Shown: piece by piece, positions 22,914 through 64,000 of the stretch
Numbering within the stretch: the first letter of the stretch is position 1
How the letters are laid out: every line of letters begins with the position of its first letter
Assembly (NCBI GenBank): GCA_963728205.1
Contig: CAVSIV010000001.1
Coordinates: 1,184,001-1,248,000 of the forward strand
Origin: an uncultured Chloroflexia bacterium
GTDB taxonomy: Bacteria > Chloroflexota > Dehalococcoidia > UBA2979
Direction of reading: 5' to 3'
DNA: 64,000 nucleotides
Notes under the pieces: generated by a model
The model's database searches: none
What the model was told of the DNA's origin: nothing
Seen by the model: only the letters and a program-made list of their open reading frames with translations
Position numbers and translations under genes: made by a program

Positions 22914-23092
22914 GCGGCCAACCATAGTCGCGGCAGTCGTGACGGCTGACCCGCGCCCGCGGGCCGGAAGCGAGGTCGGGCGGCATACCCGCCGGGTCCG
23001 GTCGGTCCGTCCGTCGCCGGACGGGGATCGGCAGCCGGAGCGACCCGGAACACCGGGAGGGCGGTGCCGCCCGGCGCGAGGAGCCGGCGGAC

Positions 23093-23512
23093 TCAGAGCG
23101 AGGGGAACCAGATGGCGATCTCGCGGGCGGCGGACTCGGGGCCGTCGGAGCCGTGCACGATGTTCTGCTGCACCGTGGTCCCCCAGTCCCGGCCGAGGTC
23201 GCCGCGGATCGTGCCGGCCGCGGCCGACGTGGGGTCGGTGGCCCGCGCAAGGGCCCGGAAGCCCTCGATGCACCGGTCGCCCTCGATGACGACGGCTGCC
23301 ACGGGGCCGGAGGCCATGAAGTCGAGAAGCGGCTCGTAGAACGGCTTGCCCTCGTGCTCGGCGTAGTGCCGGGCCAGAAGGTCGCGGGTCGGGGTGAGGA
23401 CCTGCAGGGCGAGCAGGCGGTATCCCTTGGCCTCGACCCGGCGCAGCACCTCGCCGGTGAGACCCCGGGCGAAACCGTCGGGCTTGACGAGGACGAGGCT
23501 GCGTTCGGTCAC
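23093..23512 (-). CDS. ndk: nucleoside diphosphate kinase
   Basis: [15 protein letters not shown] and NIVHGSD. Confidence 0.95.
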
Positions 23513-24000
23513 GCCGGCCAGCCTACCCAGAGTGCCGGACCGTCCTCGGGGGCCGACCCGGCGGCGTCGCGGGCGGCGACGAGGCGCTCGGCCCGGTACC
23601 CCTGGGCCATGAGAAGGAGCCACAGCCCGGTGAAGATGACCCCGACCCCGATCATCGCGGGAAGCAGGAGGGCGCCGAGCCAGGTGAGCACCTGGACGAC
23701 CCAGCCGACGGTGACGCCGTAGGGACGGCGCATCAGCCCGGCGGCGACGACGGAGAGCACGGCAAGGCCGGAGCCGAGCCAGAGGAGCGTCGACGGGCTG
23801 GTCCCGCCGTTCGCGTCGGCGAGTCCCCGGGCCAGGGTGGCCCCGAGGAAGATGGCCACCCCCTGGCCGACGAGGACGACGGCGAGCAGCCGCCAGGTGA
23901 ACGGCCCGAGGATGCCGTAGAGCGGAAACCGGCGCATGACGCCCAAGGGTATGCCGCCCCGACGGTCCGGATCGGTGCCGCTGCCGTCGTCAGTCGTCAT
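23509..24000 (-). CDS. DUF4233-like membrane protein
   Basis: Four TM helices; occupies the usual actinobacterial position between folC and ndk. Confidence 0.75.
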
Positions 24001-25388
24001 CCAGGCCGAGCAGCATCCGGACCTCGGCGGCGGTGACGACCGACCCGGTGGCGAGGACCCCACCGCTGACCCCGCCCTCGTCGGCGAGGCCGGCGGCGCG
24101 GTCGAGCGCGTCGGGCAGGTCGTCGACGACGGTGACCCGGTGCTCCCCGAAGATGTCCACGGCGATCTCGCCGAGCGCGGCGGGCGCATGGCCCGGGGCG
24201 AGGTCGTTCCGGGTCACGACGACCTCGTCGAGGACCGGCTCGAGGACCTCGAGCATGCGGCCGCGTCCTTGTCGGCGAGGATGGCGAGGACGCCGACGAG
24301 CCGGGCGAAGGTGAAGGAGTCGTCGCAGGGCGGCCCGCAGGGCCCGAGCCCCGGCCGGGTTGTGTGCGGCGTCGACGAGGACGGTCGGGCTGCGACGGAC
24401 GATCTCGAGCCGTCCCGGCGAGGTGGCCGTCGGCGAGGCCGGCACGAAGGACCTCGAGGTCGAGCGGCTGCTCGCCACCCCCGAGGAACGCCTCGACCGC
24501 CGCGACGGCGATGGCGGCGTTGCTGCGCCTGGTGCGCGCCGTGGAGCGGGAGGAACAGGTCGGCGTAGTCCGCCGGCCAGCCCGCGCACGGAGACCAGCT
24601 GGCCGCCGACCGCGACATCGCGGGCGAGGACGCCGAAGTCGATCCCCTCGACGGCGATCCGGGCCCGACCTCCTCGGCGCGGGCCGAGGAGGATCTCGGC
24701 GACGTCGCGGCTCCTGGACGCCGACGACGGCGATCGCGTCGGCCTTGATGATGCCGGCCTTCTCGGTGGCGATCTCGCCTCGAGTGCGTCGCCGAGGAAG
24801 TGGGTGTGGTCGATGGCGACCGGGGTGATGACCGAGACCGCGGCGTCGATGACGTTCGTCGCGTCCCACCGGCCGCCCATGCCCGACCTCGACGACGGCG
24901 ACGTCGACCGGGGCATCGGCGAACGCGGCATACGCGACGGCGACGAGCACCTCGAAGTAGGTCATCCGTGGACCGCCCTGAGCCACCGATGCGGCGTCGA
25001 CCAGTCTCGATGAACGGGATGACCTCGGCGTAGGCCGCGAGGAAGCGTTCCTCGTCGAGCCGGCTCCCCGGACAGGGCGATCCGCTCCCGCATGGAGTGC
25101 AGGTGGGGTGAGGTGAACCGCCCGGTGCGCAGGCCCATCTCGCGCAGGATCGCGTCGATGATCCGGGTCGTCGAGGTCTTGCCGTTCGTGCCGGTGAGAT
25201 GGATGGCGGGGAAGGTGCGCTGGGGTTCGCCGAGCAGGTCCATGACCGCCGCGATCCGGTCGAGGCGACGGCTGGAGGTCGTGCTCCGGCGCGCGAGCGA
25301 GGATCGCCTCCTCGGTCAGGCGCATCCTCCTGGTGAGGTCGAGGCGGCGTTCGGCCTCGCGTCGGGCAGCGTCGGGAGCGGGAGTCAC
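23990..25388 (-). CDS. folC: folylpolyglutamate synthase/dihydrofolate synthase (multiple frameshifts, likely sequencing errors)
   Basis: [39 protein letters not shown] and TGSV. Confidence 0.9.
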
Positions 25389-25483
25389 AGGGTCAATCCT
25401 GCATCAGGTCGGCGGGTTCCCCGGACGCACAGGTATGCCGCGACCCGCCCGCCCGAGGAGGTGAGGGTGGCGGGACGAGCACC

Positions 25484-28400
25484 TCAGGCCGTGGCCACCC
25501 GGATCCGCACCGGCAGCCGCTCCTCGCCGACCTCGGCCACCGACACGCCATCGCCGGAGGGGAGGTCGTCGAGGTTGACCAGGATGCCGAGATGCGTGGC
25601 CAGGGTCTCCCCCATGACGAGATCGCGGTGTGTGTGCACCGCGCGCTGCATGAGCTCGGCGCCGGCCACGGTGAGCGAGATCCGGTCGGTCACCTCCAGG
25701 CCGGCCTCCCGCCGCGCCTGCTGGACGCCGCGGACGAGGTCCCGCGCCACCCCTTCCAGGGCCAGCTCCGCGGTGACCTCGGTGTCGAGGACGACGAACC
25801 CGCCCCCGGGCAGCATCGCCGTCGCGTGGCTACCCGCAGCGGAGGGGTCGACGACCGTCTCGAGGGTGTACTCACCCGCGACGAGGGCGATCCCCCCCGG
25901 GAGGACCGACCCGTCATCGCCGATCGACCAGTCACCGGTCTTGCTGCCCCTGATGGCGACCTGGACCTCCTTGCCGAGCCGCGGCCCGGCGGCCCGGGCG
26001 TTGACGGTGAGCCGCTGGGTGATGCCGAAGTCGGACTCGTGCGCCGACGCGACGTCGAGCACCCGGACCGAGCGGACGTTGACCTCGTCGGCGACGATCC
26101 CGGCATACGCCTCGAAGGCGGCCGCACCGGAGGTCACCACCGTCAGCTCGCGTAGCGGCAGACGCACCCGCAGCCCCACGCCCTTGCGCAGCGAGGAGGC
26201 CACCGAGCACACCGAACGCACCTGGTCCATCGCCGCGACGAGGCCGTCGTCGGTCGGTAGCAGCGAGGCGTCCGGCCAGTCGGCGAGGTGGACCGACCGG
26301 TCGCCGGTCAGCCCACGCCAGATCTCCTCCGAGACGAGGGGCAGCAGGGGCGCGGTGACCCGGGTCAGCACCTCGAGGGTCGTGTACAGCGTGTCGAACG
26401 CCGCCCGCGTCGACCCGGTGGACGAGCCCCCCGAGGTGTCCCAGAACCGCTCCCGCGACCGTCGGATGTACCAGTTCGTCAGGACGTCGACGAAGGAGCG
26501 CACCGACTCCGACGCCCCCGGGATGTCATAGACGTCCAGCTGCCCGGTGACGGTGGCGACGAGGTCGTGGAGCTTGGCGAGCAGGTAGCGGTCGAGGGGG
26601 TCGCCCGAGTCCACCGACCAGCGGGCCTCATAGCCCGCTGACCCGTCGACCGAGAGTGCGTTGGCGTAGAGCGAGAAGAAGGACCAGCTGTTCCACAGCG
26701 GGATGATGACCTGACGGACGCCCTCGCGGATGCCCTCCTCGGTGACGATGAGGTTGCCGCCGCGCAGGATCGGTGAGGACATGAGGAACCAGCGCATCGC
26801 GTCGGCGCCGTCGCGGTTGAACACCTCGGTGACATCGGGGTAGTTGCGCAGCGACTTGCTCATCTTCTGCCCGTCGTTGCCGAGGACGATCCCGTGCGAG
26901 ACGCAGGACCGGAAGGCCGGCCGGTCGAACAGGGCCGTCGCGAGGATGTGCAGCGTGTAGAACCACCCCCGGGTCTGCCCGATGTACTCGACGATGAAGT
27001 CGCCCGGGAAGTGGTGCTCGAACCAGTCGGCGTTCTCGAACGGGTAGTGGACCTGGGCGAAGCTCATCGACCCCGAGTCGAACCACACGTCGAGGACGTC
27101 CTCGACCCGGCGCATCGTCGAGTTCCCTGTCGGGTCGTCGGGGTTCGGCCGGGTCAGCCGGTCGATGAACGGCCGGTGGAGGTCCGGCTCTCCCGCGTCG
27201 TTGACCGGCAGACGCCCGAAGTCCCGCTCCAGCTCCGCGAAGGACCCGTAGACGTCGATCCGCGGGTATGCCGGGTCGTCCGACCGCCAGACCGGGATCG
27301 GGCTGCCCCAGAACCGGTTCCGGGAGATCGACCAGTCGCGGGCGTTCTCGACCCACTTGCCGAACTGGCCGTCCTTGACGTGCTCGGGCACCCAGGTGAT
27401 CTCCTGGTTGAGCTCGCCCATCCGGTCCTTGATGGCCGTCACCTCGACGAACCAGCTCGACACCGCCATGTACATGAGCGGCTCGCGGCAGCGCCAGCAG
27501 TGCGGGTAGGAGTGCTCGTAGGTCTCCTTGCGGAGCAACACGGTGCCCTGGGTCGTCGAGCCGACCTCGGCCTCGCCGTGGAACCCGTCGACATAGGTGC
27601 GGTTCTTGAGGTGCTCGACGACGAGCGGGTTGGCGTCGAAGACATGCAGCCCCTCGTAGTCGGCGATGGGATACGGTGAACCGCCCGTCGGCGGCGACCG
27701 GGACGACCGGCGCGATGCCGTACTGGTCGGTCAGCAGCTTGTCGTCCTCACCGAACGCCGGAGCGATGTGGACCAGCCCCGAGCCGTCCTCGGTCGTCAC
27801 GTAGTCCGCGGGCAGGACGACGTGGCTGTTCGGGTGGCCGAGGTAGTAGGAGAACGGCGGCGTGTAGCGCCGGCCGACGAGATCCGAGCCCTTCATCCGG
27901 GCGACCACCCTGGCCGACAGCTCGTCATCGGTGAGCGAGGCGTCACCGAACAGCTCCGCGGCATACGTCCGCAACCGGGCCTCGGCGAGGATGTAGCGCT
28001 CGGGACGTCCCGCGTAGTCCGACTCGACGACGACGTAGTCGATGTCCGGGCCGACGGCCGTCGCGAGGTTGCTCGGCAGCGTCCACGGCGTCGTCGTCCA
28101 CACCAGGGCCAGCTCGCCGGACTCGAGCCGGCAGCCGACGGTGACCGCCGTGTCCTTGCGGATCCGGTAGGACTCCTCGTCCATCCGCAGCTCGTGCGTG
28201 GACAGCGGGGTCTGGTCGTTCCAGCAGTAGGGCAGCACCCGGAAGCCCTCATAGACCAGCCCCTTGTCGTAGAGCTGCTTGAAGGCCCACAGGACGCTCT
28301 CCATGAAGCTCGGGTTGAGCGTCTTGTAGTCGTTGTCGAAGTCGACCCACCGCGCCTGGCGGGTGACGTAGGACCGCCACTCGTCGGTGTACGTCATGAC

Positions 28401-28823
28401 CGACTCGCGGCACTTGGCGTTGAAGGTCTCGATCCCCAGCTCGAGGATCTCCTCCTTGGTCTTGATCCCGAGCTGGCTCATCGCCTCGAGCTCGGCCGGC
28501 AGGCCGTGGGTGTCCCACCCGAAACGCCGGTCGACCCGGTGCCCGCGCATCGTCTCGTAGCGGGGGACGATGTCCTTGACGTAGCCGGTGAGCAGGTGGC
28601 CGTAGTGCGGCAGGCCGTTGGCGAACGGCGGGCCGTCGTAGAAGACGAACTCGTTGCTGCCGTGCTCGCCCGCGGGCCGGTTCTCGACCGAGGCCCGGAA
28701 CGTGTCGTCGGCCGCCCAGTAGGCGAGCACCGCCTCCTCGATCTGCGGGAACCGCGGGCTGGAGGGGACGCCGAAGGCCGCGCCGGTGTGCTGGGCGGTC
28801 GTGGAGACCTTGGGGTAGGGCAT
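25484..28823 (-). CDS. ileS: isoleucyl-tRNA synthetase (frameshift near 27670)
   Basis: [38 protein letters not shown] and KMSKS. Confidence 0.95.
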
Positions 28824-28844
28824 CGGGGTACTCCTGCGGCGAGT

Positions 28845-29075
28845 CGGTCTTCTCGGGCCTGCCACGAGGACGACATCGCCGCCGGGGTATGCCGGTCGGC
28901 GGCACCGCGGTACCACCTCGCTTGCCGCACGTCGCCGCCTCGGGGGCCACGGCATACGACCGCTCGTTCGCGGGCTGTGACGGGCCCACCCGTCCGGGTC
29001 TAGTGAGCGGCTCCCGTCCGCCGGGTGCACGCCGTTCTTCCGGAGGCTCGCCGCTGATGACGGCTCGAACGCCTT
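28845..29075 (-). ncRNA. actinobacterial ileS T-box riboswitch
   Basis: Minus strand reads CATCAGCGGCGAGCCTCCGGAAGAACGG (ATC specifier)...GGCCCGTCACAGCC...AAGCGAGGTGGTACCGCG upstream of ileS. Confidence 0.85.
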
Positions 29076-29164
29076 TCGGCGCAGGAGTCTACCGGCCCGC
29101 GCCGACCGGTCCGACCGGGTCTCGGGCCGGGAGTAGAGTTGCCGGCAGCCGCCTCCGAGGCGGC

Positions 29165-29260
29165 ACCACACGCGCGAGCGAGGGGAAGCCGGTCCAAGTC
29201 CGGCGCTGACCCGCAACCGTAGGCCATCGCGAGGTGGCGAGCCGGAATGCCTCGGGAGCG
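29165..29260 (+). ncRNA. cobalamin riboswitch
   Basis: GGGGAAGCCGGTCCAAGTCCGGCGCTGACCCGCAACCGT...GAGCCGGAA core, upstream of an ECF operon. Confidence 0.85.
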
Positions 29261-29360
29261 CGAGCGGCTCCATCACACCGTCGAGGACTGCGGGACGGAG
29301 CCCGGCTCGCTGGGGTCCAGCGGTCGGGACGAACGTCACGAACCGCTCGGAAAGGGACCC

Positions 29361-30850
29361 ATGTCCACCGCTTCTGCCCGCATCGGCGCCGCCGTCTGCC
29401 GGCGTCCTGCTGGCCGCTCTCGCCCTCGCCCAGGCGGCGAGTGCCGACACCGCGTCCACCCCGACCGGGACGCCGACCACGTCGCCCACCCCGAGCCTGA
29501 CCCCGTCCTCCTCGCCCTCGCCCGCGGGCACGGCGACCCCGACGACCAGCGCGACGACCACACCCAGCACGACGACAACCAGCGCGGCCCCCACGCCATC
29601 GGGCCTGACGACCTCGTCGACACCGACGGGCTCGCCCACGCCGGCCGGAGGCGTCCGCCTCTCGGCACCGGCCCTGAGCGGCTCGACCCCTCAGCGGGCG
29701 GAGGACGCCGCAGCCTTCATCGCAGCGACCCTCGCCGCCGGGGGCGACCACTACGTCTACCCCGGCACGACCTACGTCGACGGCGGCAACACGATCGACG
29801 CGATCCTCGCGCTCGACGGCGCCGGGGTCGGCCAGCGCGAGGCGACCGCAGCGACGGATACCTCGCTGCCCACCTCGGCGAGCTACATCGGCACGGGCGG
29901 CGAGAGGTATGCCGGCGCGACCGCCAAAGCGCTCCTCGCCTTCGTCGCCCAGGGGCGGGACCCGCACGACGTCGGCGGAACGGATCTCGTCAGCACCCTC
30001 GAGGGGCTCGAGACGGTCAGCGGTCGCTTCTCCGACGTCGTCCGGGTACGGGGACTACTCGAACACGATCGGGCAGTCGCTGGCGCTCATCGCTCTGACG
30101 CGGGCGGGCGGCACGGTGTCCAGCCGGGCCGTGACCTTCCTCCTCGCGCAGCAGTGCCCGGACGGCGGGTTCCGGGCGACCCGCTGCGCAGGTCTGCGTG
30201 AGCGATCCCGACGCGACGGCGTTCGCCGTCCAGGCGCTTCTCGCCGTCGGGACGGCGAACCCAGCCACGTCGTGCGCGGCGGCCTCGGGCCTGGACTTCC
30301 TCGTCGGGCCCGGCAGGGGGCGGACGGCGGCATCGCGAGCGCGCAGAGCGCGGAGAACGCCAACACGACCGGCGTGGCGGCCCAGGCGTTCGCCGCCGGC
30401 GGTCGGGCCGCCGCGCTCTCCTCGGCCCAGAGCTTCATCGCCGGACTCCAGTACGACTGCTCCTACCAGGCCGCCCTGCGCGGGGGGATCGCGTTCACCG
30501 CGGCCGACCGGACCGGGACCGGCGCCACCGCCCCCGCCGACCGTGACCTGCGGGCGACCCCGCAGGCCGCGCTCGGTCTGGCCGCCGGGACCCTCGCCTG
30601 GGTGTCCGGGACCGATAACCCCCCAGGGACCACCGCGATGGTCTGCCCGGTCCGGCACGACGAGCCGCCTCGACCTCCCCCGATGCGACGACCCGGCCGA
30701 CCACGGCACTCGAGCCGTCGCCCCGGTTCGCTCGCCTACACCGGTGCTCCGGTGCTCGGACAGGTCCTCCTCGGCCTCGGCCTGCTCGGCACGGGTGGCG
30801 CTCTTCTCGTCACCGGGTCGCTGGTGCGCCGCCGCGGAGCGCACGCATGA
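29361..30850 (+). CDS. secreted prenyltransferase-like (alpha/alpha barrel) surface protein with LAYTG sortase-like anchor; frameshifted
   Basis: Signal-like N-terminus, Thr/Pro/Ser linker, [37 protein letters not shown], then LAYTG plus TM plus RRR. Confidence 0.65.
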
Positions 30851-31644
30851 GCCGCCGCGGCGGTGCCGTGGCGCGGCCTGCTGGCCGGGTCGCTGCTCGC
30901 GGCCGCCCTGCCGGTGCTCGGTCCGACGGCTCCCGCCTCGGCCGCGGCCTGCACCGGGTCGACCGGGGTGACCGTCGTCGTCGACTCGTCGCATCGGAGT
31001 GCGCGCCCGGCGACCCGTCCAGCGGCCTCGACGCCCTCCACGCGACCGGCCACCGACGACGATGGTGGCCACCGCCCCCGGCGTTCCTGTGCCAGATCGA
31101 CGGGAAGCCGGCCTCCGACCCGTGCGTGCGCATCCCCCCAGCCAACGCCTACTGGAGCTTCTGGACGGCCAGGCGCGGCGGTCGGCTGGGTCTACACCGA
31201 CCTCGCCGTGACCGAGCCGACCTGGGCCCCCGGACCGTCGTCGGGTTCGCGTTCGGTGCGGGCGGCCCGCCGGCCGCCATCGCCCCGCCGGCCGCCGCGC
31301 CGACACCCAAGCCGAGCCCTCCAGGCGAGCACGCCGGCCGGCACGTCCCAGCGTGACGGCGACCCATCCGGCGACGAGCGACGCCCGGGCCGACCACGCG
31401 GCCGTCGAGCCCCGCCGCGGTGTCGAGCGCCGCCTCGTCGGCGACCCCGGCGACCGAGTCGGCGACGACGGTCGGCGCGAGCCCCACGGCCTCGAGCACC
31501 ACAGCCCCGCTCGACCGCACCCTGGCGGCGTCGGGCATCTCCCCGGTCGGCTCGTCCGGGCTGCTCCCGGTCGGCATCGGCATCGCGCTCCTCGCGGCGC
31601 TCGGCGCCGGGACGGCATACGCCATCCGCCGGCGCCGGGCCTGA
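30847..31644 (+). CDS. second surface protein of the B12 ECF operon (DUF4430/SCO2322-like); frameshifted
   Basis: ACTGSTGVTVVVD, FLCQIDGKPASDPC..PPANAYWSFW; C-terminal TM plus RRRR. Confidence 0.6.
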
Positions 31645-31656
31645 CGGAGCGCCGCG

Positions 31657-32826
31657 ATGCCCACCCTCCCCCGACACCTCCACCCCGGTGCGTGGTGGCT
31701 GTGGGCGCTCGGGATGGCGGTGGCGGGGGGCGCGACGCACCAACCCGCTCCTGCTGGGCCTCGTCCTCGCCGTCGCTCGGTCTCGTCGTCGCAAGCCGCC
31801 GCGGGGACTCCCCCTGGGCCCGGGCGTTCCGGCTCTACCTCCTGCTCGGGGCGGCGATCGTCGTCGTCTGCGTGTCGTCCTGCTACGTCCTCGTCGGGCT
31901 CAAGCTCGGCGAGCATCTCCTCGTCCGGCTGCCCGAGCCCGACCCTGCCGTCCTGGGCGGCCGGGATCACCCTCGTTCGGCCCCGTCTACCTCGAGGGAC
32001 TGCTCGGCGCCGCGCTCGAGGGCCTGCGGCTGGCGACGGTCATCGCCGCGCGTCGGCGCCGCGAACGCCCTGGCCAACCCCAAGCGACTGCTCCGCGCGA
32101 TGCCCGGCGCGCTCGCCGAGATCGGCACCGCGCGTCGTCGTGTCGGTGACCGTCGCGCCCCAGCTCGCCGAGAGCGTCCAGCGGGTGCTGCGTGCCCGCA
32201 GCGCTGCGCGGCCAGGCCGGCCGCGGGCTGCGGGCCGTTCGCCAGGTCGCGCTCCCCGTCCTCCAGGACACCCTCGACCGCTCGCTCCTGCTCGCCGCGT
32301 CGATGGACGCCCGCGGGCTACGGCCGCCGGGCCACCCGGCTCCCCGGCCGCCCACGCGCTGGCCTCGACGCCTCGCCCTCGGCGGCCTGCTCGGCGCGGC
32401 GGTCGGGATCTACGGGGTGCTCGACGCGAGGGCCCCGGCCCTGCTCGGGCTGCCGCTGCTCGCCGGCGGCCTCATCGCCGCCGTGGTCGGGCGCCTGGCA
32501 GGGCGGCCGCGCGGTCGTGCGGAGCACCTACCGCCCCGACCCCTGGGCGGCACCCGGAGTGGCTCACCGCCGCGTGCGGCATCGCTCGCGGCCGGCGCGG
32601 TGCTCGTCGTCCGCGCACCTCGACCCCGCCGCGATGGCGATGCCGCTCGCAGCCGCTCGCGCTGCCGGTCCTGCCCTGGCTGCCGGTCGCGGGGCTCCTC
32701 CTCGCCGCCCTTCCCGCGGTCGCTGACCCCGGCCGCCGACCTCGGCCCGCGCCTCGCGGGCCGCCGGGGGACCCGCCGGAGCCCGGCTGCCCGCCGGTAC
32801 CGAGCGGCAGGTGGGCCATGCGCTGA
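31657..32826 (+). CDS. ECF transporter T component (CbiQ-like); frameshifted
   Basis: LHPGAWWLWALG, ANALANPKRLL and LDRSLLLAASMDARG. Confidence 0.8.
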   Translation: MPTLPRHLHPGAWWLWALGMAVAGGATHQPAPAGPRPRRRSVSSSQAAAGTPPGPGRSGSTSCSGRRSSSSACRPATSSSGSSSASISSSGCPSPTLPSWAAGITLVRPRLPRGTARRRARGPAAGDGHRRASAPRTPWPTPSDCSARCPARSPRSAPRVVVSVTVAPQLAESVQRVLRARSAARPGRPRAAGRSPGRAPRPPGHPRPLAPARRVDGRPRATAAGPPGSPAAHALASTPRPRRPARRGGRDLRGARREGPGPARAAAARRRPHRRRGRAPGRAAARSCGAPTAPTPGRHPEWLTAACGIARGRRGARRPRTSTPPRWRCRSQPLALPVLPWLPVAGLLLAALPAVADPGRRPRPAPRGPPGDPPEPGCPPVPSGRWAMR

Positions 32827-34513
32827 CCCCGCCGTCGTCATCGAGGGCGCGACCGTGACGTATGCCGGGTCCGCCCGCCCGGCGCTGCGCGACGTCGACC
32901 TCGAGGTCGACGAGGGCGAGCTCGCGCTCGTCGTCGGTCGGACCGGCTCGGGTAAGTCGACCCTGCTCGGGCTGCGTCAACGGCGCGGTGCCGCACTTCA
33001 CCGGCGGCCGGCTCGCACGGACGGGTCCGCGGTCCTCGGCCGGGACACCGCGACCCACCGCCCCCGGGACCTGGCCGGCGCTCGTCGGCGTCGTCGGCCA
33101 GGACCCACTCGCCGGGTTCGTCACCGACACCGTCGAGGAGGAGCTCGCCTACGGCATGGAGCAGCTGGCCTGCCGCCGGCGACGTCATGCGCAAGCGGGT
33201 CGAGGAGACCCTCGACCTGCTCGGCATCGCCGAGCTGCGGGACGCCCCGCTGCGGGAGCTGTCCGGCGGCCAGCAGCAGCGCGTGGCCATCGGCTCGGTG
33301 CTGACCGCCCACCCGCAGGTCCTCGTCCTCGACGAGCCGACCTCCGCCCTCGACCCGACCGGGGCCGAGGAGGTCCTCGCGGCCGTCACCCGGCTCGTCC
33401 ACGACCTCGGCGTGACCGTCGTCGTCGCCGAGCACCGCATCGAGCGGGTCATCCAGTACGCCGACCTCGTCGTCCACGTCGGTCCCGACGGCGTCGTGCC
33501 GGCGGTGCGCCCGCCGACATGATGGCGACCTCGACCGTCGCGCCGCCGGTCGTCGAGCTCGGCCGGTGGGCGGGCTGGTCGCCGCTCCCGCTGTCGGTGC
33601 GGGATGCCCGCCGGGCCGCCCACGCCCTGCGCCGGCGAGCCGCCACGGCCGCGGGCCGGGCCCGGCCCCACCGACCCGTCGTCGCCGGTCCGGGCCTCCG
33701 CCGGCAGGTCGGTGCGCCACGCCTGGGGCGACACGTGGGCCGTCTCGGCCCGGCGATCGTCGTCGCGCTGAGACGCCGCGGTCGCCGGCGTCGACCTGAG
33801 CTGGCCCGGCGAGATCACCGCCCTCATGGGCCGCAACGGCTCCGGCAAGTCGTCGCTGCTGTGGGCGCTCCAGGGATCCGGACGCCGACAGGCCGGGAGG
33901 TCCGGGTCGACCGACGCAGCGGCTCAGGCCCGGTCGACCCCCGCGACATCGCCCCCGCCGGAGCGACGTCGCCGCCGTCGGCCTCGTGCCGCAGACCCCG
34001 GGCGACCTGCTCTACCTCGAGTCGGTCGCCCACGAGTGCGCCCAGGCCGACCACGAGAGCGGCGCCGCGCCCGGCACCTGCGCGGGACTCCTCGACGGCC
34101 ATCGCCCCCGGCATACCCGACGGGTCGCACCCCGCCGACCTGTCCGAGGGCCAGCGACTCGCCCTCGTCCTCGCGGTCCAGCTCACCGCCGACCCGCCGG
34201 TCGTCCTCCTCGACGAGCCGACCCGCGGCCTCGACTACGACGCCAAGCGCGCGCTGGCGGCCGTGCTGCGCGAGCTGGCCAGCCAGGGCCGGAGCGTCTC
34301 GCCTCGACCCACGACGTCGAGTTCGTCGCCGGACGGTGGCCGACCGGGTCGTCGTCCTGGCCGGCGGCGAGGTCGTCGCCGACGGACCCGACCGCTGACG
34401 TCGTGCGATCCTCGCCCGCCTTCGCACCCCAGGTCGCCAAGATCACCGCGCCCGAGCCCTGGCTGACCGTCGCCGACGTCGTCGCCGCGCTCCCGGGCGG
34501 GGTGCCGCGATGA
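32818..34513 (+). CDS. ECF transporter tandem ATPase; frameshifted
   Basis: GRTGSGKST, LSGGQQQR, LDEPTS; second half GRNGSGKSS, LSEGQR, LDEPTRGLD. Confidence 0.85.
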
Positions 34514-50451: not shown

Positions 50452-50469
50452 CCCGTCGCCGGCCGAGGG

Positions 50470-54056: not shown

Positions 54057-54072
54057 CGCGGCATGGTCGGAC

Positions 54073-54168
54073 GAGGCGCACCGCCTGTCGGTGCTTGTGG
54101 CGGCCGCTGACCGCGCGAGTGACGACATGGAGTTCGTCGAGGCCGTCTCCGACGACTGGCCCGAATGA
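54073..54168 (+). pseudogene. C-terminal remnant of a DUF3018/MazE-like antitoxin
   Basis: EAHRLSVLVAAADRASDDMEFVEAVSDDWPE*, ATGA-coupled to the toxin, with no N-terminus. Confidence 0.55.
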
Positions 54169-54491
54169 GACGCGGCGACATCATCACCGTGGCCGATGGC
54201 GTCTATGCGAACAAGCCTCGGCCGGCGTTGATCGTCCAGGACGACCGGTTCGACGCGAGCGCGTCGCTGACCGTGTGCCCCTTCACGAGCACGGAGACCG
54301 ACGCGCCGCTGCTGCGGGTGCCGGTCACCGCTGACGAAGGGAACGGCTTGGACCAGGACGGCTTCTTGATGGTCGACAAGATCACCACGGTGCGCAGGGG
54401 CAATGCCCACGCAGTGATCGGGAGGCTGGAGGCCGCGACGTTGGTCGAGTTCGAGAGGCGCCTCCTCGTCTTCCTCGGCTTCGGCGACTGA
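54165..54491 (+). CDS. PemK/MazF family toxin
   Basis: MRRGDI...KPRPALIVQ...VCPFTS...LMVDKITTV. Confidence 0.9.
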   Translation: MRRGDIITVADGVYANKPRPALIVQDDRFDASASLTVCPFTSTETDAPLLRVPVTADEGNGLDQDGFLMVDKITTVRRGNAHAVIGRLEAATLVEFERRLLVFLGFGD

Positions 54492-54550
54492 ACGCACCGC
54501 TCCGCGGCATGGTCGGACGCTAGCGCCGACAGCGGCAAATCAGGAGCGAG

Positions 54551-54800
54551 TCAGGCGCTGGCTTCCCCATCCGTCGTAGTCGCGGCCTGGCCACTGCTGG
54601 GCGACGCCTTCGACGAACACCCGAGCATCGCGTACCGCTTCTGGGCTCGTAACCGCGCCGTGCCGCTCAGCGACGACGACCCACTCGGGTCCACCTGTCG
54701 CAAGAACTCTGCAACGTCCTGCAGGTCCCACCCCGCAGCCTCCACGACCTCAGCTGCTCCGCGCGCGCCCGCCTCGTCGGCGAAGGACAGGTAGTGCGCG
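54551..54800 (-). pseudogene. RraB-like domain fragment
   Basis: HYLSFADEAGA...WVVVA...DYDGWG, split across frames. Confidence 0.45.
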
Positions 54801-55007
54801 CGGCGCGGATCGACCGGCACGCCACCGATGATCGGTCCCGGGTCCTCGCCGACCGCCTCGACGCCCTCGTCCGCGAGCTGAGCCGAGGCATGGAGCAGCG
54901 GCTGGCACCGAACCCCTATCGCTGACAGATCGCACGCGACGGGCTCAGGCGGTGGGTGGCGGAGAGGCATCAGGGGTCCGGCAGGCCTCTGACCTGCGGT
55001 GCTGCGA

Positions 55008-55081
55008 TGGAGCGGGTGACGGGAATCGAACCCGCATGGCCAGCTTGGAAGGCTGGGGCTCTGCCATTGAGCTACACCCGC
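55008..55081 (-). tRNA. tRNA-Gly(TCC)
   Basis: GCGGGTGTAGCTCAATGG...CCAGC-CTTCCAA-GCTGG...GGTTCGATTCCCGTCACCCGCTCCA cloverleaf. Confidence 0.97.
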
Positions 55082-55201
55082 GTGCTCCCCTCCACCGGCG
55101 ACCGTCGTCGGCGGGCCGAGAGCAGGCGCTAGCCTAGTGGCCGCTGTCGCGGGACCCGAAATCCTCCCCGCACCGGGCGTATGCCGGGTGTCCGGGCGCC
55201 G

Positions 55202-55278
55202 CGGGGTATGGCGCAGTTTGGTAGCGCGTCCGCTTTGGGAGCGGAAGGCCGCCGGTTCAAATCCGGCTACCCCGACCA
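55202..55278 (+). tRNA. tRNA-Pro(TGG)
   Basis: CGGGGTATGGCGCAGTTTGG...TCCGC-TTTGGGA-GCGGA...GGTTCAAATCC...CCCCGACCA. Confidence 0.97.
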
Positions 55279-55320
55279 TCCCTGCCCACCCGCGCCCGCG
55301 CCCTCCGCGCGGAGGAACGC

Positions 55321-55985
55321 TTACGGACGCAGGACGGCCCGCAGATCGGTGATCGCCCGCCCGGCCGCGATGCCCTTGGCCTCGAAGCCGTCGACCGGCC
55401 GCCAGCCGGGACGCTCCCCTCGTGGACCTCCCACCGCTGGTGCGCAGCCAGCGCGTGCCGGACGTGCGCGGCATACGGCGCATGGTCGGTGGCGACGAGC
55501 AGCCGGCCGCCCGGTTCGAGACGGGAGGCGAGCAGGTCGAGGGTGTGCTGCTGGATGAAGCGTCGCTTGGCGTGCCGCTTCTTCGGCCACGGGTCGGGGA
55601 AGAACAGGTGGACGGCCGCCAGGGACGCCGCCGGCAGCCGCTCCCGGAGCAGCGGCAGCGCGTCGTCGGGCTCCACCCACAGGTTCGCCACGCGGGCGGC
55701 CTCGGCGGCCGCGAGCATCCGGGCCACCCCGGGGACGTGGACCTCGACGGCGAGCAGATCGACGTGAGGGTGGGCGGCGGCATACGCGATGGCGGCCGCC
55801 CCATGCCCGGACCCGATCTCGAGGACGACGGGGGCCACCCGGCCGAACGCCTGTTCTGGGTGCAGCACCCCGGCCGGGATCCGGCGAGCGGGCAACAGGG
55901 TCGCGATCCGCTCCTCGGTCAGCGCAGAGGTGCGCCAGCGCGGGGTGAAGGTGCGCACGCCGGCGTGGGTGGCGAGGTCGGACAT
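55321..55985 (-). CDS. trmB: tRNA (guanine-N7)-methyltransferase (frameshift near the 3' end)
   Basis: LEIGSGHG, AVEVH, FFPDPWPKKRH.KRR and ATD. Confidence 0.9.
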
Positions 55986-56198
55986 GACCGACCAGGGTAC
56001 GCAGCGTTCTGCCCCGCCCCAAGCCCACGTTCGTCCACCGGCGCCGTCGACGCCCTGAGCCCCGGGTCCGTCCCCAGCCGGGGCCGGGGAGATCGCTCGT
56101 CAGCCCGGACCATGTCCCTGGCGAGGACGAAGGGTCCCTGATCCGGCGGGACAGGGGTGCTGGCCGCAGGCTGGTGGGTGACCGGGCGAGGCGAGGGG

Positions 56199-57304
56199 TC
56201 AGAGCCGCTGGATGGTGAAGGCCGCGCGGTCGTCCATCCGACCCGAGCGGGCCGAACGGCACACGGCCTCGGCCATCCCCGCCCCACCGCTCACCATGAC
56301 CTGGCTCGCCACGCCGAGCATCCGGTCGATGCCGATGTCGAGGTCGTACTCCCGCGACTCGACGACCCCGTCGGTGTAGAAGAGCAGCGCGTCGCCCGGC
56401 TGGAGCCGTCCGGACGCCCGAGGGAAGAACACCCGGTCCATCACCCCGAGCAGCGGCCCTTGGGTGCCGACCATCTCCCACGTCGCCGTGCCGGCGTGGT
56501 AGTGCCCCGGCGCCGGGTGTCCGGCGAGCCCGATGCTGTAGGACCCGGTGTCGAGGTCGATGTCGAGGTGGGCAGCCGTGGCGAAACCCTCACCCCATCG
56601 CTGACGGATGAGGAACGAGTTCGCGGCGCTGAGGAACGAGAAGGCCCCGACCGAGCCGAGGATGCCGCTCAGGGCCCCGGAGAGGAGCAACGAGCGAGCA
56701 CCGGCCCCCCGGCCCTTGCCGCTGACGTCGACGACCGCGACCTCGAGCCGCTTCTTGTCCGGGCTGAGCGAGGTGACCATGAAGTCGCCCGAGAAGGCAT
56801 CCCCGTTGGCCGACTGCAGCGCGGCCTCCGCCAGCCAGCCCTCCGGCAGCTCGGGCAGCGTGCCGTTGCGCTGGATCCGGTCCCGCAGGTCCACGAGCAG
56901 GTTGTCCCCGGTGAACCCCTGGGTGCCGAGCCTCGCGCGTGACCGGCCGATGAGATACATGAAGACCATCACCGTGCCGAGGGCGAGCGGCGAGAGGAAG
57001 AAGGGGTCGCTCGTGGACGGGAACAGCAGGGACCTGACGACGACGACTCCGGCGATCGGGGTGCAGAGGACGAGCAGCCGAGGCACGGTGAGGACAACCC
57101 GGCGAGGACGATGATCGGCGCGAAGGCGGCCACCGGGATCTGCGCGGGGAAGGCGAGGACGAAGAGCGAGACGAACGCCGTCGCTGCCAGCAGGAGGATG
57201 AACTGGACGAGGTCGGACTCGCGCAGCATCGAGTTCGTGCCCAGCCACCGGCGCACTTGAGTGCGCCGACGCCGGCGCACCACGACGCTGACGTTGGTCT
57301 CCAC
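56199..57304 (-). CDS. membrane-anchored PP2C/SpoIIE phosphatase (frameshift near 57095)
   Basis: SGDF, VDVSGKG, AGHP, YTDGVVE and DDRA. Confidence 0.85.
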
Positions 57305-57463
57305 TGCCCCACCCTTGACAGTCCGGTTGTTCCTGCCCAGCGTAGGGCCTGACCCGAGGGGCCGATGCCGAGACGGGGAAACCGGCAGGGCCCGGCCACT
57401 CACCAGCACAAACGCCTGTCGCGACCGTTCGGTTCCGCCCGGCATGGGGGCCGGACCGGTGCG

Positions 57464-57931
57464 CTACGGCACCTCCGGGGCGACCCCCTCGGCCTCGTAG
57501 CGGCTGACCATGTCGATCCTCCGTTGGTGTCGACCGTCCCCGCTGAAGGGGGTCGAGAGGAAGACCGAGGCGATCGAGCGCCCCTCCTCGAGGGTGTTCA
57601 TCCGGCCCCCGATCGAGAGGACCTGGGCATCGTTGTGCTCACGGGCCAGCCGGGCCAACTCGTCGTTGTAGCACAGGGCCGCCCGGATCCCCCTGACCTT
57701 GTTGGCGGCCATCTGCTCACCGTTACCCGAGCCACCGAGGACAATGCCGAACGAGCCCGGGTCCGCGGCGACCGCTCGGGCTGCGGCGAGGACGAAAACC
57801 GGGTAGTCGTCCTGCGGGTCCAGCTCGTGCGGTCCGTGGTTGACGACCTCGTGCCCCTGCTCCTCCAGGTAGCCGACGAGGTCGACGAGCATCTCGTATG
57901 CCGCATGGTCGCCGCCGATGTGTACGCGCAC
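57464..57931 (-). CDS. rpiB: ribose-5-phosphate isomerase B
   Basis: GGDHAA, GGSGNGEQ.AANKV.GIR and AREHNDA. Confidence 0.95.
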   Translation of the reverse strand: MRVHIGGDHAAYEMLVDLVGYLEEQGHEVVNHGPHELDPQDDYPVFVLAAARAVAADPGSFGIVLGGSGNGEQMAANKVRGIRAALCYNDELARLAREHNDAQVLSIGGRMNTLEEGRSIASVFLSTPFSGDGRHQRRIDMVSRYEAEGVAPEVP

Positions 57932-57946
57932 GGGTGCGTCCTTCCG

Positions 57947-58567
57947 TCAGTCGAACTGGGGCCCCACGACACGGGACCGCTTGAGCTCGTAGAACCCCTT
58001 GGTTCCGGCGACGAGCACGCACCCGTCCCACAGCCGTCCCGCCGCCTCACCGCGTGGGGCGGGCGTGACGACGGGCCCGAAGAACGCCGTCCCGTCCACG
58101 GCGATCGTCGGCGTTCCGACGTCGTCGCCCACGAGGTCGATCGCTCGCTGATGGCTGGCGCGCAGGGCCGCATCGTGGGCGTCGGTCGTCGCGGCCGCCG
58201 CCAACTCGGCCGGCAGTGCGACCTCGGCGAGTGACTCGGCGATGACCGCGTCGAGGTCCGTGCGCCCGTCGGGATGGATCCGGGTGCCGAGCGCGTCGTA
58301 GAGCGGCTTGGCCACCTCCGGTCCGTGCGCCTCGATCGCCGCGATGACGACGCGGACCGGCCCCCAGGCCCGGTCGAGGAAGGCACGGTAGTCCGGGTTC
58401 AGGTCCCGCCCCTCGTTGAGCACGGCCAGGCTCATGACCGACCACGTGACGTGCACGGGACGGACCTGCTCGACCTCGGTCATCCAGCGCGACGCCATCC
58501 ACGCCCAGGGGCACAGCGGGTCGAACCAGAACTCGGCCTCGTGGACGTCGGCGGAGGTGGACGGCAT
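57947..58567 (-). CDS. DsbA-like mycothiol-dependent reductase (Rv2466c-like)
   Basis: [21 protein letters not shown] and FYELKR. Confidence 0.9.
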
Positions 58568-58738
58568 ACGGACCATCCTGCCACCGCCTCCCGTGCCCCC
58601 ACGCCGTGGTCCGCCACATGCGAGGATGGGCGGGACCCCGGGTCGGGCCTGCCGCCCGGGTCAGCCCCCTGCCACGAGCGGGACCCGCTGCACGACGGCG
58701 ACCCGCGCCCCAGCCGACCTGCCAGCAAGGAGACCCCC

Positions 58739-61288
<2,550 letters not shown>

Positions 61289-61316
61289 GTAGCCACCGAC
61301 CCGACCCAAGGACGGC

Positions 61317-62255
61317 ATGCGCATCCTCATCGAGACCCTGACCACGACCCCGATGGCCCTGCTCAGCACGACCTCCTGGGCGGCGGTCGGCGACTGGCTG
61401 CTCACCGACGGGCTGCGGATCCTCGCAACCGTCGTCATCGCCTTCATCGTCCGCTGGCTGCTCCACCGGTTCGTCTCCCGGATGGTCACGATGATGACCG
61501 CGAGGTCGGCCCGACGCGACGACGAGCTCAACCGAGCGGGCCGCATGCTCGCCGGGATGTCGGAGACGACCCATGAGCGCTACATCCAACGGATGACGAC
61601 GCTCGGCTCGCTGCTTCGCTCGATCACCACCTTCGTCGTCTTCGGGATCACGGCGCTCACCGTGATGGCCCTCCTCGGCATCCCGCTCGCCCCGCTGCTC
61701 GCCTCGGCCGGGGTCGGCGGGGTGGCCCTCGGCTTCGGGGCGCAGAGCCTCGTCAAGGACTTCCTGTCCGGCATCTTCATGATCATCGAGGACCAGTACG
61801 GCGTCGGCGATGTCATCGACACCGGCCAGGCGAGCGGCGTCGTCCAAGAGGTCTCGCTGCGTATCACCCGGCTCCGCGACATCAACGGCGTGACGTGGTA
61901 CATCCGCAACGGCGAGATCGCCCGGATCGGCAACATGACCAAGGGCAGCTCCAACGCCGTCGTCGACATCCCCGTCGCCTACAACGAGGACCTCGACAAG
62001 GTCCTGGGGGTCATCACCCAGGTGACGGTCGACTTCGCCAAGGACCCCGACTGGGCCGACAAGCTCATCGAGGCACCCAGCGTCCTCGGGGTCGAGAAGA
62101 TGGTCGGCGCGATGATGACGATCCGGGTGCTCGCCCCGTGTGCCCCGGGGCAGAACTGGGCGATCCAGCGAGAGCTGCGCCAGCGGGCGAAGATCGCCCT
62201 CGATGCGGCCGGGGTGAAGGCCCCGCCCGTCTTCCCCGGGAGCGGTCAGCCGTGA
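61317..62255 (+). CDS. MscS family mechanosensitive channel
   Basis: [23 protein letters not shown] and IRNGEI. Confidence 0.9.
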
Positions 62256-62656
62256 GCCTCTACGACGCAGTGGGTGGGGCGCCGACCTTCGCCGCCCTCG
62301 TCCGCGGGTTCTACGCCGGCGTTCGCGCCGACCCCGAGCTGCGCGCGCTCTATCCCGAGGAGGACCTCGGCCCGGCGGAGCGCCGGCTGCGGATGTTCCT
62401 CGAGCAGTACTTCGGTGGGCCTGCGGCATACTCCGCCGAGCGCGGCCACCCCCGGCTGCGGATGCGCCATGCTCCCTTCCCCGTCTCCGAGGACATGCGG
62501 GACCGGTGGCTGCGCCACATGCTCGGCTCGCTCGACGCGCTCGGCCTCCCGGCGGAGCAGGACCACGCGATGCGCGACTACTTCGAGCGCGCCGCGCACA
62601 TGATGGTCAACACGTGGACCTCCCCGCCGGGGGGTTTGGCCGCGCCCCAGCCATAG
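62252..62656 (+). CDS. glbO: group II truncated hemoglobin
   Basis: [28 protein letters not shown]. Confidence 0.9.
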
Positions 62657-62670
62657 GGAAGGCTGTTCCG

Positions 62671-64000
62671 GTGACTCTCAGCACCCCGGACACGCCTCCA
62701 GCCCCGGTCGACGAGCCGATCCACCGGGCCGAGCCCGACGACGCACCCTGGTGGCGGCATGCCGTCATCTACCAGGTCTACCCGCGCAGCTGGGCCGACA
62801 GCGACGGCGACGGGGTGGGCGACCTGCCGGGGATCACCGCCCGACTGCCCTACCTCCGCGATCTCGGCGTCGACGCGATCTGGCTCAGCCCCTTCTACGT
62901 CTCACCGATGAACGACGCCGGCTACGACGTCGCCGACTACCGGGCTGTCGACCCGCTCTTCGGTCGGCTCGCCGACGCCGACACCCTCGTCGCCACGGCG
63001 CACGACCTCGGCCTGCGGGTTCTCGTCGACCTCGTGCCGAACCACTCGAGCAGCGAGCATCCGTGGTTCCGGGCCGCGCTCGCCGCCGCACCGGGCAGTC
63101 CGGAGCGGGCCCGCTACATCTTCCGCGACGGGCGCGGCGAGCACGGCGAGCTCCCGCCGAACAACTGGCCGTCGGTCTTCGGCGGGCGGGGCTGGAGCCG
63201 GGTCACCGAGGCCGACGGCTCCCCCGGCCAGTGGTACCTGCACATCTTCGACACGACCCAGCCGGACTACGACTGGACCAACCCCGAGGTCCGTGCGGAG
63301 TTCCTCTCGATCATCGGGTTCTGGGTCGAGCGGGGTGTCGACGGCTTCCGGGTCGACGTCGCCCACGGCCTGGTCAAGGAGGACGGGCTGCCGGACTGGG
63401 TCGGTGGTCCGATCGGCCAGGGCGCGATCCATGCCGACGAGGGTGAGGAGGGCGAGGAGCCCGCGCGGCTGCACGACGCGGACCCGGCCACCCATCCGCC
63501 GATGTGGAACCAGCCCGGCGTCCATGAGATCTACCGGGCCTGGCGCGAGCTGCTCGACTCCTTCGGCGAGCCCGAGCGGATCCTGTGCGCCGAGGCGTGG
63601 GTGCGGCCCGCGGCCCGGCTCGCCGAGTACGTCCGACCCGACGAGATGCACCAGGCGTTCAACTTCCCGTTCCTCGACACCCACTGGTACGCCGACCGCC
63701 TCCACCGGGTCATCGAGGAGTCGTATGCCGCGACCGACGCTGTGGGTGCTCCGACGACCTGGGTGCTGTCCAACCACGACGTCGTCCGGCACGTCTCCCG
63801 GCTCGGCCTCGACCAGGCGCTGCCGCGCCCCAACGGCATCCGGGCGGACGACCCGCAGCCCGACCTCGAGCTCGGGCTGCGCCGTGCCCGCGCCGCGACG
63901 ACCGTCATGCTCGGGCTGCCCGGCGGCGCCTACCTCTACCAGGGAGAGGAGCTCGGGCTGCCCGAAGCGACCGACCTTCCCGACGAGGTCCGTCAGGACC
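62671..64000 (+). CDS. GH13 alpha-glucosidase, 3'-partial
   Basis: WWRHAVIYQVYPRSWAD, DLVPNH, GFRVDVAHG, SNHD and YQGEELG. Confidence 0.92.
   Translation, partial: MTLSTPDTPPAPVDEPIHRAEPDDAPWWRHAVIYQVYPRSWADSDGDGVGDLPGITARLPYLRDLGVDAIWLSPFYVSPMNDAGYDVADYRAVDPLFGRLADADTLVATAHDLGLRVLVDLVPNHSSSEHPWFRAALAAAPGSPERARYIFRDGRGEHGELPPNNWPSVFGGRGWSRVTEADGSPGQWYLHIFDTTQPDYDWTNPEVRAEFLSIIGFWVERGVDGFRVDVAHGLVKEDGLPDWVGGPIGQGAIHADEGEEGEEPARLHDADPATHPPMWNQPGVHEIYRAWRELLDSFGEPERILCAEAWVRPAARLAEYVRPDEMHQAFNFPFLDTHWYADRLHRVIEESYAATDAVGAPTTWVLSNHDVVRHVSRLGLDQALPRPNGIRADDPQPDLELGLRRARAATTVMLGLPGGAYLYQGEELGLPEATDLPDEVRQD

Follow-up and report, generated by a model that had tools for sequence, protein, structure and literature searches.

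The 64,000-nucleotide stretch analyzed here, the window, covers positions 1,184,001-1,248,000 of contig C1 (CAVSIV010000001.1) in the assembly of an uncultured Chloroflexia bacterium (GCA_963728205.1, G000 in the following; 4,125,032 bp in 6 contigs). It contains a short non-palindromic word, CGGCATAC, at a density far above expectation. This is a genuine hyperabundant word of genomes of the actinobacterial family Dermatophilaceae (Intrasporangiaceae-type), where rich genomes carry one copy per 0.7-3 kb on both strands, inside and between genes. Its presence in the window is explained solely by the right 41.7 kb, a stretch of Dermatophilaceae DNA that was joined, most likely through misassembly, to the genome of an unrelated organism without the word. 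As to what it does, we assign a probability of roughly 45% to an uptake-sequence-like self-recognition word of putative function, which would be read by a heritable and switchable DNA-binding factor.

A pattern search for CGGCATAC or its complement returns 33 exact copies in the window, 18 on the plus and 15 on the minus strand. One hundred dinucleotide-preserving shuffles gave a mean of 1.12 (standard deviation 1.05, maximum 4) and never reached 33, which corresponds to a roughly 30-fold excess. All but one of the copies lie to the right of position ~22,275, spanning 22981-63730 with 17 plus and 15 minus copies; the remaining one (5430..5437, plus strand) is at chance level for the host part. 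The initial annotation had counted 30 copies in the right part, 17 plus and 13 minus, and a single copy in the left 22.3 kb. Its plus-strand count and its lone left copy were borne out, while the minus-strand count rises to 15 and the sum to 32. It had also stated that every GGCATAC heptamer extends to the full octamer, as 33 of 33 in the window do, and that the word has no strand skew, which agrees with the counts above and with equal totals in the genomes of relatives. Aligned flanks of the window copies revealed no longer common repeat.

Codon usage does not account for the excess. When synonymous codons were permuted within each open reading frame (ORF), 23 ORFs to the right of 22,400 (22,329 bp) contained 15 copies against 1.47 ± 1.17 in the shuffles, with a maximum of 5 in 200 runs. 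The same null model applied to 237 ORFs of Knoellia locipacati (G041) yielded 179 observed copies against 13.2. A codon-aware null had been named beforehand as one of the refuting tests, and the enrichment survives it: it is confirmed as real and not a codon effect.

The word does not belong to the host genome, and its enrichment there is local, a point that the initial annotation had missed. Of 135 copies in the whole assembly, 53 fall within the 75,971 bp between C1:1,206,401 and the contig end. The other 4.05 Mb hold 82, near chance at ~1 per 50 kb, and 40 relatives of G000 show no enrichment of CGGCATAC, their counts resembling those of the reversed control word. The Dermatophilaceae-like segment (22276..64000, and on to the end of contig C1) is recognized by a second set of core genes, by collinearity and by the likeness of its trigger factor (Tig). 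Its genes, according to Pfam, include an lpd fragment, a folC-like ligase, ileS, valS, clpX, clpP2, clpP1, tig, trmB, pepN, mscS and an alpha-amylase-family gene. Divergent second copies of the segment's core genes are found elsewhere in G000 at 31-58% amino acid identity. The tig-clpP-clpX cluster at C1:907-910 kb shares 31%, 47-50% and 58.5% with the segment copies, ileS and valS on C6 share 37% and 34%, and pepN on C2 shares 38%. The segment Tig has 84% identity to the protein in a metagenome-assembled genome (MAG; L009) of an uncultured Actinomycetota member; for records from Knoellia, Phycicoccus, Oryzobacter, Pedococcus and Nostocoides the figure is 69-79%. For the trigger factor of the host, the nearest Atlas clusters are commonest in Chloroflexota, a lead only. 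Three Dermatophilaceae genomes show the same gene order as window positions 44,001-64,000 (collinearity), with nucleotide identities of 66-81%. Positions 2,401-22,400 show no synteny with those genomes except for the last 125 bases, and 22,275-22,400 is 90-91% identical to K. locipacati, to a complete Pedococcus genome (G042) and to G045.

At the junction near 22,275 (21492..22913) two cut-off genes meet head-on. On the left, a thiamine-pyrophosphate-enzyme ORF on the plus strand (21492-22388) breaks off after the start of its middle domain. On the right, a frameshifted gene on the minus strand, from 22913, is likewise cut off; the reading of its translation suggests a dihydrolipoamide-dehydrogenase-like (lpd-like) product. 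Because both junction genes are truncated, single-copy genes are present in foreign duplicate and the segment sits at a contig end, a misjoin is far likelier than gene transfer, and contig C1 is most likely a chimera by misassembly. The proposal that the word is a signal of an actinobacterial lineage was thus right insofar as the word is real, dispersed and hyperabundant in Dermatophilaceae, but it is not a signal of the window's own genome.

The segment is of draft quality. Its ileS runs across two frames, lpd is frameshifted, and in-frame stops interrupt valS near 39107-39181. The gene beside clpP1, trmB and a SpoIIE-type gene have one frame change each relative to their counterparts in relatives, and frame changes lie near 46845, 55410 and 57096. 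The broken genes reflect draft-quality sequence and are not necessarily pseudogenes. Contigs of a public run (X1) contain 6% of the words and cover the right part from 22,278 at 90-99% likeness, with 51 single-base insertions or deletions over 14 kb. Among the 40 of 365 differences listed, none hits a motif copy. No listed piece of this run bridges the junction, and the piece that ends there is only 242 nt long and hence uninformative either way.

Two further observations concern the foreign material in this assembly. The stretch C6:1,820,001-1,840,000 (L138) is collinear with the same three Dermatophilaceae genomes at 69-88% nucleotide identity, and C6 from 1,800,000 to its end holds 15 copies of CGGCATAC in three 25-kb bins, ~0.2 per kb. 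The end of this contig is probably a second foreign join, from a relative of lower word density. In C1:1206000-1276000, compared with the rest of G000, CCGGGTCA occurs 29 times against 2.5 expected, and TGGCCA and CTTGGC/CCAAGG are enriched several-fold. Since similar counts are found in the tig loci of relatives, these excesses are ordinary word usage of the lineage.

How widespread is the word within the family? Eighty tig-centred loci from public genomes (1,386,478 bp) contain 562 copies and fall sharply into two classes. Rich loci, with 10-35 copies per ~21 kb, are found in Knoellia (8 records), Phycicoccus elongatus Lp2, Pedococcus and many MAGs. No copy occurs in the loci of Phycicoccus sp. 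HDW14 (G043), P. jejuensis, P. flavus, Oryzobacter, Nostocoides sp. Soil756 and the outgroups Streptomyces, Kineosporia and Arthrobacter. Whole genomes, with the reversed word as control, repeat this division: there are 2,652 copies in K. locipacati (control 116, ~23-fold), 1,376 in Pedococcus sp. KACC 23699 (control 97) and 2,614 in P. elongatus Lp2 (control 80), against 25 in Phycicoccus HDW14 (control 12) and 25 in Oryzobacter terrae (control 6). Density is bimodal across 151 family genomes, 80 of which are rich (at least 0.2 copies per kb) and 59 poor (<0.05 per kb), with 12 between. The densest has 5,422 copies in 3.6 Mb. The suggested comparison with assemblies of relatives came out in favor of the word, as both isolate genomes and numerous independently made assemblies contain it.

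The word has no orientation with respect to replication. Both the totals of the 80 rich genomes (85,502 forward and 85,571 reverse copies) and 20 evenly spaced 20-kb samples of the K. locipacati genome (117 plus and 133 minus copies) are balanced, and replichore polarity is therefore lacking, as a check proposed at the outset was meant to settle. Both strands are represented in 19 of these samples; the twentieth holds a single copy.

Placement within genes follows particular reading frames. In the same samples 179 of 250 copies (72%) are located in called ORFs, which make up 73% of the DNA. In 121 of the 179, word positions 2, 5 and 8 fall on wobble positions, reading either xCG GCA TAC (Ala-Tyr) or G TAT GCC G (Tyr-Ala). 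The TAT share of tyrosine codons amounts to 11.1% in rich loci and 1.0% in motif-free loci. TAT GCC encodes 214 of 604 Tyr-Ala pairs in rich loci and 1 of 102 in motif-free loci, and GCA TAC encodes 144 of 608 Ala-Tyr pairs against 0 of 127. Even the tyrosine content differs, with 1.67% versus 1.42%. At Tyr-Ala and Ala-Tyr dipeptides codon preference gives way to the word, and the earlier remark that copies in genes run through the rare GCA and TAT codons was accurate.

The word is also sharply defined, with few one-mismatch neighbours. Rich loci amounting to 990 kb contain 724 perfect copies, while all three variants at position 1 add up to 13 and those at position 8 to 32. In 77% of copies the word is preceded by A or G, and in only 2% by T. 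Copies are closer to each other than expected, with 77 gaps below 50 nt against 26 under a Poisson model, a three-fold excess. Pairs of the form GTATGCCG...CGGCATAC within 70 nt number 60, and 51 of them form near-perfect hairpins of 25-48 nt, mostly 34-35 nt, with a median ΔG of -32 kcal/mol. The opposite arm order accounts for 16 pairs and 3 hairpins. Some of the hairpin copies are GC-rich and lie between genes.

Not all DNA of a rich genome takes part. The two samples of lowest GC content from K. locipacati hold 1 and 6 copies against an average of ~13. The poorer one (L100, G041:C1:2200001-2220000, GC 0.665) encodes a TraG/TrwB coupling protein, an M23+SLT+NlpC/P60 hydrolase and a LysM protein. 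By its gene content it looks like a conjugative element, similar to an integrative and conjugative element (ICE), from which the word is nearly missing; this observation covers a single region of the kind.

The family does not use a single word. CGGCATTC reaches 3,142 copies in G057 (control 27), a genome that also has 1,025 copies of CGGCATAC. CGGCATCC is found 4,571, 4,390 and 3,293 times in G193-G195 against 315-396 for the control, and 517-662 times in two genomes with other variants. CGCATAC occurs 962-3,253 times in G197-G200 (controls 242-393) against 48 times in K. locipacati (control 418). All four variants have the core GCAT, and they are found in isolates and in assemblies with differing contig-naming styles, so that no one method can have produced them. 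In the tig loci from L009 to L108, words that contain CGTAC, for example CCTCGTAC and CGTACGA, are 3- to 6-fold rarer where CGGCATAC is abundant than where the motif is missing. Their scarcity, and that of CGCATAC in K. locipacati, may be a by-product of the same process that acts on the word or of restriction avoidance.

On a FastTree phylogeny of five concatenated proteins with 62 rows, the variants are bound to clades, with 11 label changes against 26.1 in shuffles. The outgroups do not have the word, basal lineages within the family carry CGCATAC or CGGCATAC, and the CGGCATTC genome is nested among CGGCATAC genomes. A well-supported clade of 23 rows unites all CGGCATCC genomes, four genomes of intermediate density with both CGGCATAC and CGGCATCC, and all 13 in-family motif-free genomes. 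In the pooled loci of these 13 (271 kb) no replacement word was detected, nothing exceeding a 5.8-fold ratio. Most simply read, the family has had the word for long, its specificity switched on a few discrete occasions, each time with the prior word decaying slowly, and some lineages lost it.

Can a gene be named that reads the word? The Vsr endonuclease (PF03852) is present in 28 of 80 rich and 19 of 59 poor genomes, the C5 methylase family PF00145 in 34 and 29, strong hits to the N6 methylase family PF02384 in 31 and 32, and the N4/N6 methylase family PF01555 in 25 and 20, respectively. None of the four is associated with the word across the 151 genomes, some of which are drafts. All three methylase families are missing from 26 of the 80 rich genomes, including one with 4,728 copies (G051), and the complete, rich Pedococcus genome has neither PF00145 nor PF01555. 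A repair or methylation version of the signal, as had been considered, finds no support here, and the proposed co-distribution with competence or methyltransferase genes did not emerge for any tested family. The competence gene comEC is present in 148 and a T2SSE-type pilus ATPase in 149 of the 151 genomes, and comEA (SLBB+HHH_3) adjoins comEC with the same architecture in three rich genomes and one motif-free genome. The comEC gene of the motif-free Phycicoccus HDW14 is interrupted. Next to a gene for a large serine recombinase (C1:888001-900000), profile positions 87-265 are matched in one frame and 29-84 in another, and positions 1-35 lie ~44 kb away (C1:850559). From this arrangement it looks as if the gene had been split by an integrated element.

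Taken as a whole, we infer that this pattern would need a heritable factor that acts in trans, binds DNA sequence-specifically and occasionally changes its specificity, together with a process that steadily favors DNA carrying the word. By analogy, the likeliest such process would be the preferential uptake of own-kind DNA in natural transformation followed by recombination, that is, molecular drive. We place an uptake-type signal first since density, non-polarity, choice of frame, hairpin pairs, dialects and scarcity in mobile DNA match the DNA uptake sequences (DUS) of Neisseriaceae and the uptake signal sequences (USS) of Pasteurellaceae. A more specific version can be put forward only tentatively, at somewhat less than an even chance. 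It would be a third, independently evolved DNA-uptake-sequence system and the first in Gram-positives, based on VCGGCATAC (8-9 nt) with a putative receptor on a Flp/Tad-ComEA-ComEC route, which would have switched at least three times (to CGGCATTC, CGGCATCC and CGCATAC) and been lost in some clades. Micrococcus luteus, which belongs to the same order as the Dermatophilaceae, is naturally transformable through Flp/Tad pili. Two papers mention such pili in DNA uptake (PMC6370729, PMC12378983).

Several points weigh against an uptake signal. No gene that tracks the word was found among the families tested, and genomes without the motif have comEC, comEA and the pilus ATPase just the same. The papers searched held no uptake or transformation experiments for the family. 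USS genomes hold many one-off copies; here copies with one mismatch are very rare (13 position-1 variants versus 724 perfect copies), a sharpness that drive explains no better than direct selection or a very strict reader would. With 8-9 specified bases the word is shorter than DUS or USS. The preference for one arm order in hairpins (51 versus 3) has no explanation under uptake, and the number of hairpins is inflated by orthologous positions in related genomes, 449 kb of K. locipacati containing only 4 pairs with unrelated inner stems. Lastly, the five proteins behind the tree all come from one locus.

Ranked second, after an uptake-type signal, is a word like HIP1, the highly iterated palindrome of cyanobacteria. 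It would have a selected role on the chromosome, through a nucleoid- or domain-organizing protein, or arise from a sequence-specific repair bias, in either case with no DNA uptake involved. Hyperabundance, patchy distribution in the family and replacement variants are all reminiscent of HIP1 and alternate HIPs as described in PMC5861425 and PMC4390886. The sharpness of the word with its few one-mismatch copies, and the finding that no competence gene tracks it, also suit this explanation. Conserved genes speak in both directions, as some sites are common to up to 21 genomes, but 23 of 34 occur in a single genome. Unlike HIP1, however, the word is no palindrome, and the methylase/Vsr link proposed for HIP1 is not seen for the four families in the 151 genomes, the Pedococcus genome without PF00145 and PF01555 being both complete and rich. 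Nor was a candidate binding protein found. We regard such a role as rather unlikely.

Less probable still is a self-marker for a nuclease, recombination or defense system, for example an orientation-free Chi-like attenuator or a mark that spares own DNA. A word that is dense, genome-wide, lineage-specific and present in variants would suit such a marker, as would its absence from the ICE-like island and from foreign DNA generally. Signals of the Chi/KOPS type, however, are strand-skewed with replication, and no skew is visible at the 20 places sampled in K. locipacati or in the window. Targets of the restriction type, moreover, are normally avoided rather than enriched. The word could also be the remnant of a mobile hairpin element resembling repetitive extragenic palindromes (REP), with the 8-mer as its arm. 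We consider this very improbable: it would explain the 51 near-perfect hairpins of mostly 34-35 nt with the word at both arms, but 72% of the K. locipacati copies are single, inside ORFs and in defined codon frames, and the few pairs in that genome have unrelated inner stems. Where inner stems are similar across loci, they sit at orthologous places in related genomes.

Almost no credence is due to an artefact, whether from miscalled bases at a modified site, from adapter sequence carried over, from a C-to-T scar of GTACGCCG or as a by-product of the usage of codons or dipeptides. What speaks for one is that the segment is a draft in which lpd, valS, trmB and other genes have frameshifts and in-frame stops, that it differs from the X1 contigs by many 1-nt insertions or deletions, and that the word lies inside a common sequencing adapter. 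Base calling is refuted by thousands of copies in three isolate genomes and by the 80 of 151 independent assemblies that are rich, and sequencing error by in-gene copies that lie at Tyr-Ala and Ala-Tyr with synonymous rare codons and do not change amino acids. Adapter carry-over is likewise excluded, as an extension by four adapter letters is found in only 9 of 845 copies on one side and in 0 of 845 on the other. A single-step scar origin from CGGCGTAC is at odds with the counts: the segment retains 5 such sites, compared with an expectation of ~10 and with 53 motif copies, and the corresponding sites of motif-free relatives mostly differ from the word at 2-5 positions. The codon-aware null, which the word survives, disposes of the by-product. 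The base-calling and scar alternatives raised in the initial annotation can accordingly be dropped.

Returning to the window, the individual copies in the segment were placed by pattern search, with Pfam matches identifying the folC-like, ileS, DUF4916, valS, tig, trmB, pepN, mscS and alpha-amylase contexts and ORF placement the lpd-like one. The first copy (22981..22988, plus) is upstream of the lpd-like gene and another (24926..24933, plus) at the 5' end of the folC-like ORF. Within ileS there are a copy read G TAT GCC G, Tyr-Ala (26101..26108, plus), one read CG GCA TAC, Ala-Tyr (27266..27273, minus), and one in the Tyr-Ala frame of the N-terminal part (27959..27966, plus). On the 5' side of ileS follows a GTATGCCG...CGGCATAC pair, 63 nt apart (28887 on the minus and 28950 on the plus strand; 28887..28957). 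Only 41% of this interval is self-complementary, so that it is not among the clean hairpins. The leader of ileS gave no Rfam T-box match at either threshold.

Four copies lie in a very GC-rich stretch without Pfam matches (29907..29914, minus; 31613..31620, plus; 32860..32867, minus; 34109..34116, plus). This region, 29000-35400, comprises ~6 kb of 75-79% GC with long overlapping ORFs in all frames and almost no Pfam matches apart from one weak ECF_trnsprt below its cut-off. At 29183-29251 on the plus strand the cobalamin riboswitch aptamer is matched below threshold, with 28.5 bits versus a gathering score of 31.5 (E 3e-5 in an 801-base search). Further along, a copy is found upstream of a DUF4916 domain (35181..35188, minus) and one in the Ala-Tyr frame of a small ORF (37418..37425, plus). 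The valS gene has a copy in its broken N-terminal part (38810..38817, minus) and one in the Ala-Tyr frame (39660..39667, plus). The ORF adjoining clpP1 carries one in the Tyr-Ala frame (46778..46785, plus), and another precedes the start of tig (49291..49298, plus). In the ORF at 49702-50448 the word is read GT ATG CCG (49907..49914, minus).

The rest of the segment shows the same mixture of genic and intergenic sites. One copy sits between tRNA-Gly and tRNA-Pro (55179..55186, minus), and two lie in trmB in the Tyr-Ala frame (55469..55476 and 55778..55785, both plus). At pepN there is a copy on the 5' side (58562..58569, plus), one in the Tyr-Ala frame (60211..60218, minus) and one in the Ala-Tyr frame (60726..60733, plus). 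The last two are located between mscS and the alpha-amylase domain (62424..62431, plus) and in the Tyr-Ala frame of the alpha-amylase-family gene (63723..63730, minus). Copies to which no ORF is assigned are those at 23949..23956 (minus), 25433..25440 (minus), 44644..44651 (plus), 51826..51833 (minus) and 53326..53333 (minus), and that at 57896..57903 (minus) has no assigned frame. Among other features, the Dermatophilaceae segment encodes a MazF/PemK-type toxin of a type II toxin-antitoxin pair (54123-54488, plus), and the host part has a repeat of at least 100 letters built of short words (17442-17574).

To our knowledge, genome-wide self-recognition words are textbook knowledge only for DUS and USS, that is, for two proteobacterial families, in addition to the unexplained cyanobacterial HIP1. 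We found no paper that treats the present word as biology, its bare letters matching only primer and adapter listings in a search that left most subscription journals outside. Among genome-wide hyperabundant words it is asymmetric in the manner of DUS and USS, occurs in Actinomycetota, and has four variants as well as traceable switches and losses. A non-palindromic word in a culturable actinobacterial family offers a fresh system to study how such words arise and what reads them, the more so as this family has four variants, genomes in transition and clades that lost the word. Should it be an uptake signal, natural transformation could serve the genetics of Dermatophilaceae as a tool. These bacteria of soil and activated sludge, phosphate accumulators of the Tetrasphaera type among them, would then be naturally transformable and favor the DNA of their own kind. 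The family includes abundant polyphosphate accumulators of wastewater plants, according to PMC9123174. Word density also marks foreign DNA, as with the two probably misjoined Dermatophilaceae segments in G000 and the conjugative island in Knoellia.

How does the word compare with known systems? REP and bacterial interspersed mosaic elements (BIME) share with it that some copies form GC-rich hairpins of 25-48 nt between genes, but most copies here are single and in genes, and inner stems are not conserved within a genome. Chi and the polar sequences KOPS (FtsK-orienting polar sequences) and AIMS (architecture imparting sequences) are likewise over-represented 8-mers, read by a DNA-processing machine; they are co-oriented with replication, and the word is not. 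HIP1 (GCGATCGC) is an octamer as well, patchy in its group, replaced by variants in some lineages and without a known function. In contrast to the word, which is asymmetric and tracked by no tested methylase or Vsr family, it is palindromic and tied to methylases. It is described as 15- to 300-fold over-represented (PMC5861425) and as linked to cognate methylases, with a model that combines methylase and mismatch repair (PMC4390886).

The closest counterparts remain USS and DUS. The USS of Pasteurellaceae have a similar density and subtypes at the family level, and they too occupy particular reading frames, with effects on codons and slight effects on peptides, as in the tyrosine contents given above. 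They differ in their AT-rich flanks, for which the word offers only a position -1 that disfavors T (2%). The DUS of Neisseriaceae specify 10-12 bases against 8-9 here, one-mismatch copies are very rare in our case, and the host is a Gram-positive actinobacterium for which no type IV pilin ComP receptor is known. In other respects the two are much alike: DUS are short and non-palindromic, occur about once per kb in both orientations with no replichore skew, in genes as well as between them, and form inverted pairs in terminator-like hairpins. They also come in clade-bound dialects that differ at single positions, on which Frye et al. have reportedly worked. The features of DUS and USS compared here derive partly from PMC3868556 and PMC7371117, and the latter describes DUS as scarce in conjugative islands, just as the one ICE-like stretch of 20 kb in Knoellia holds 1 copy versus ~13.

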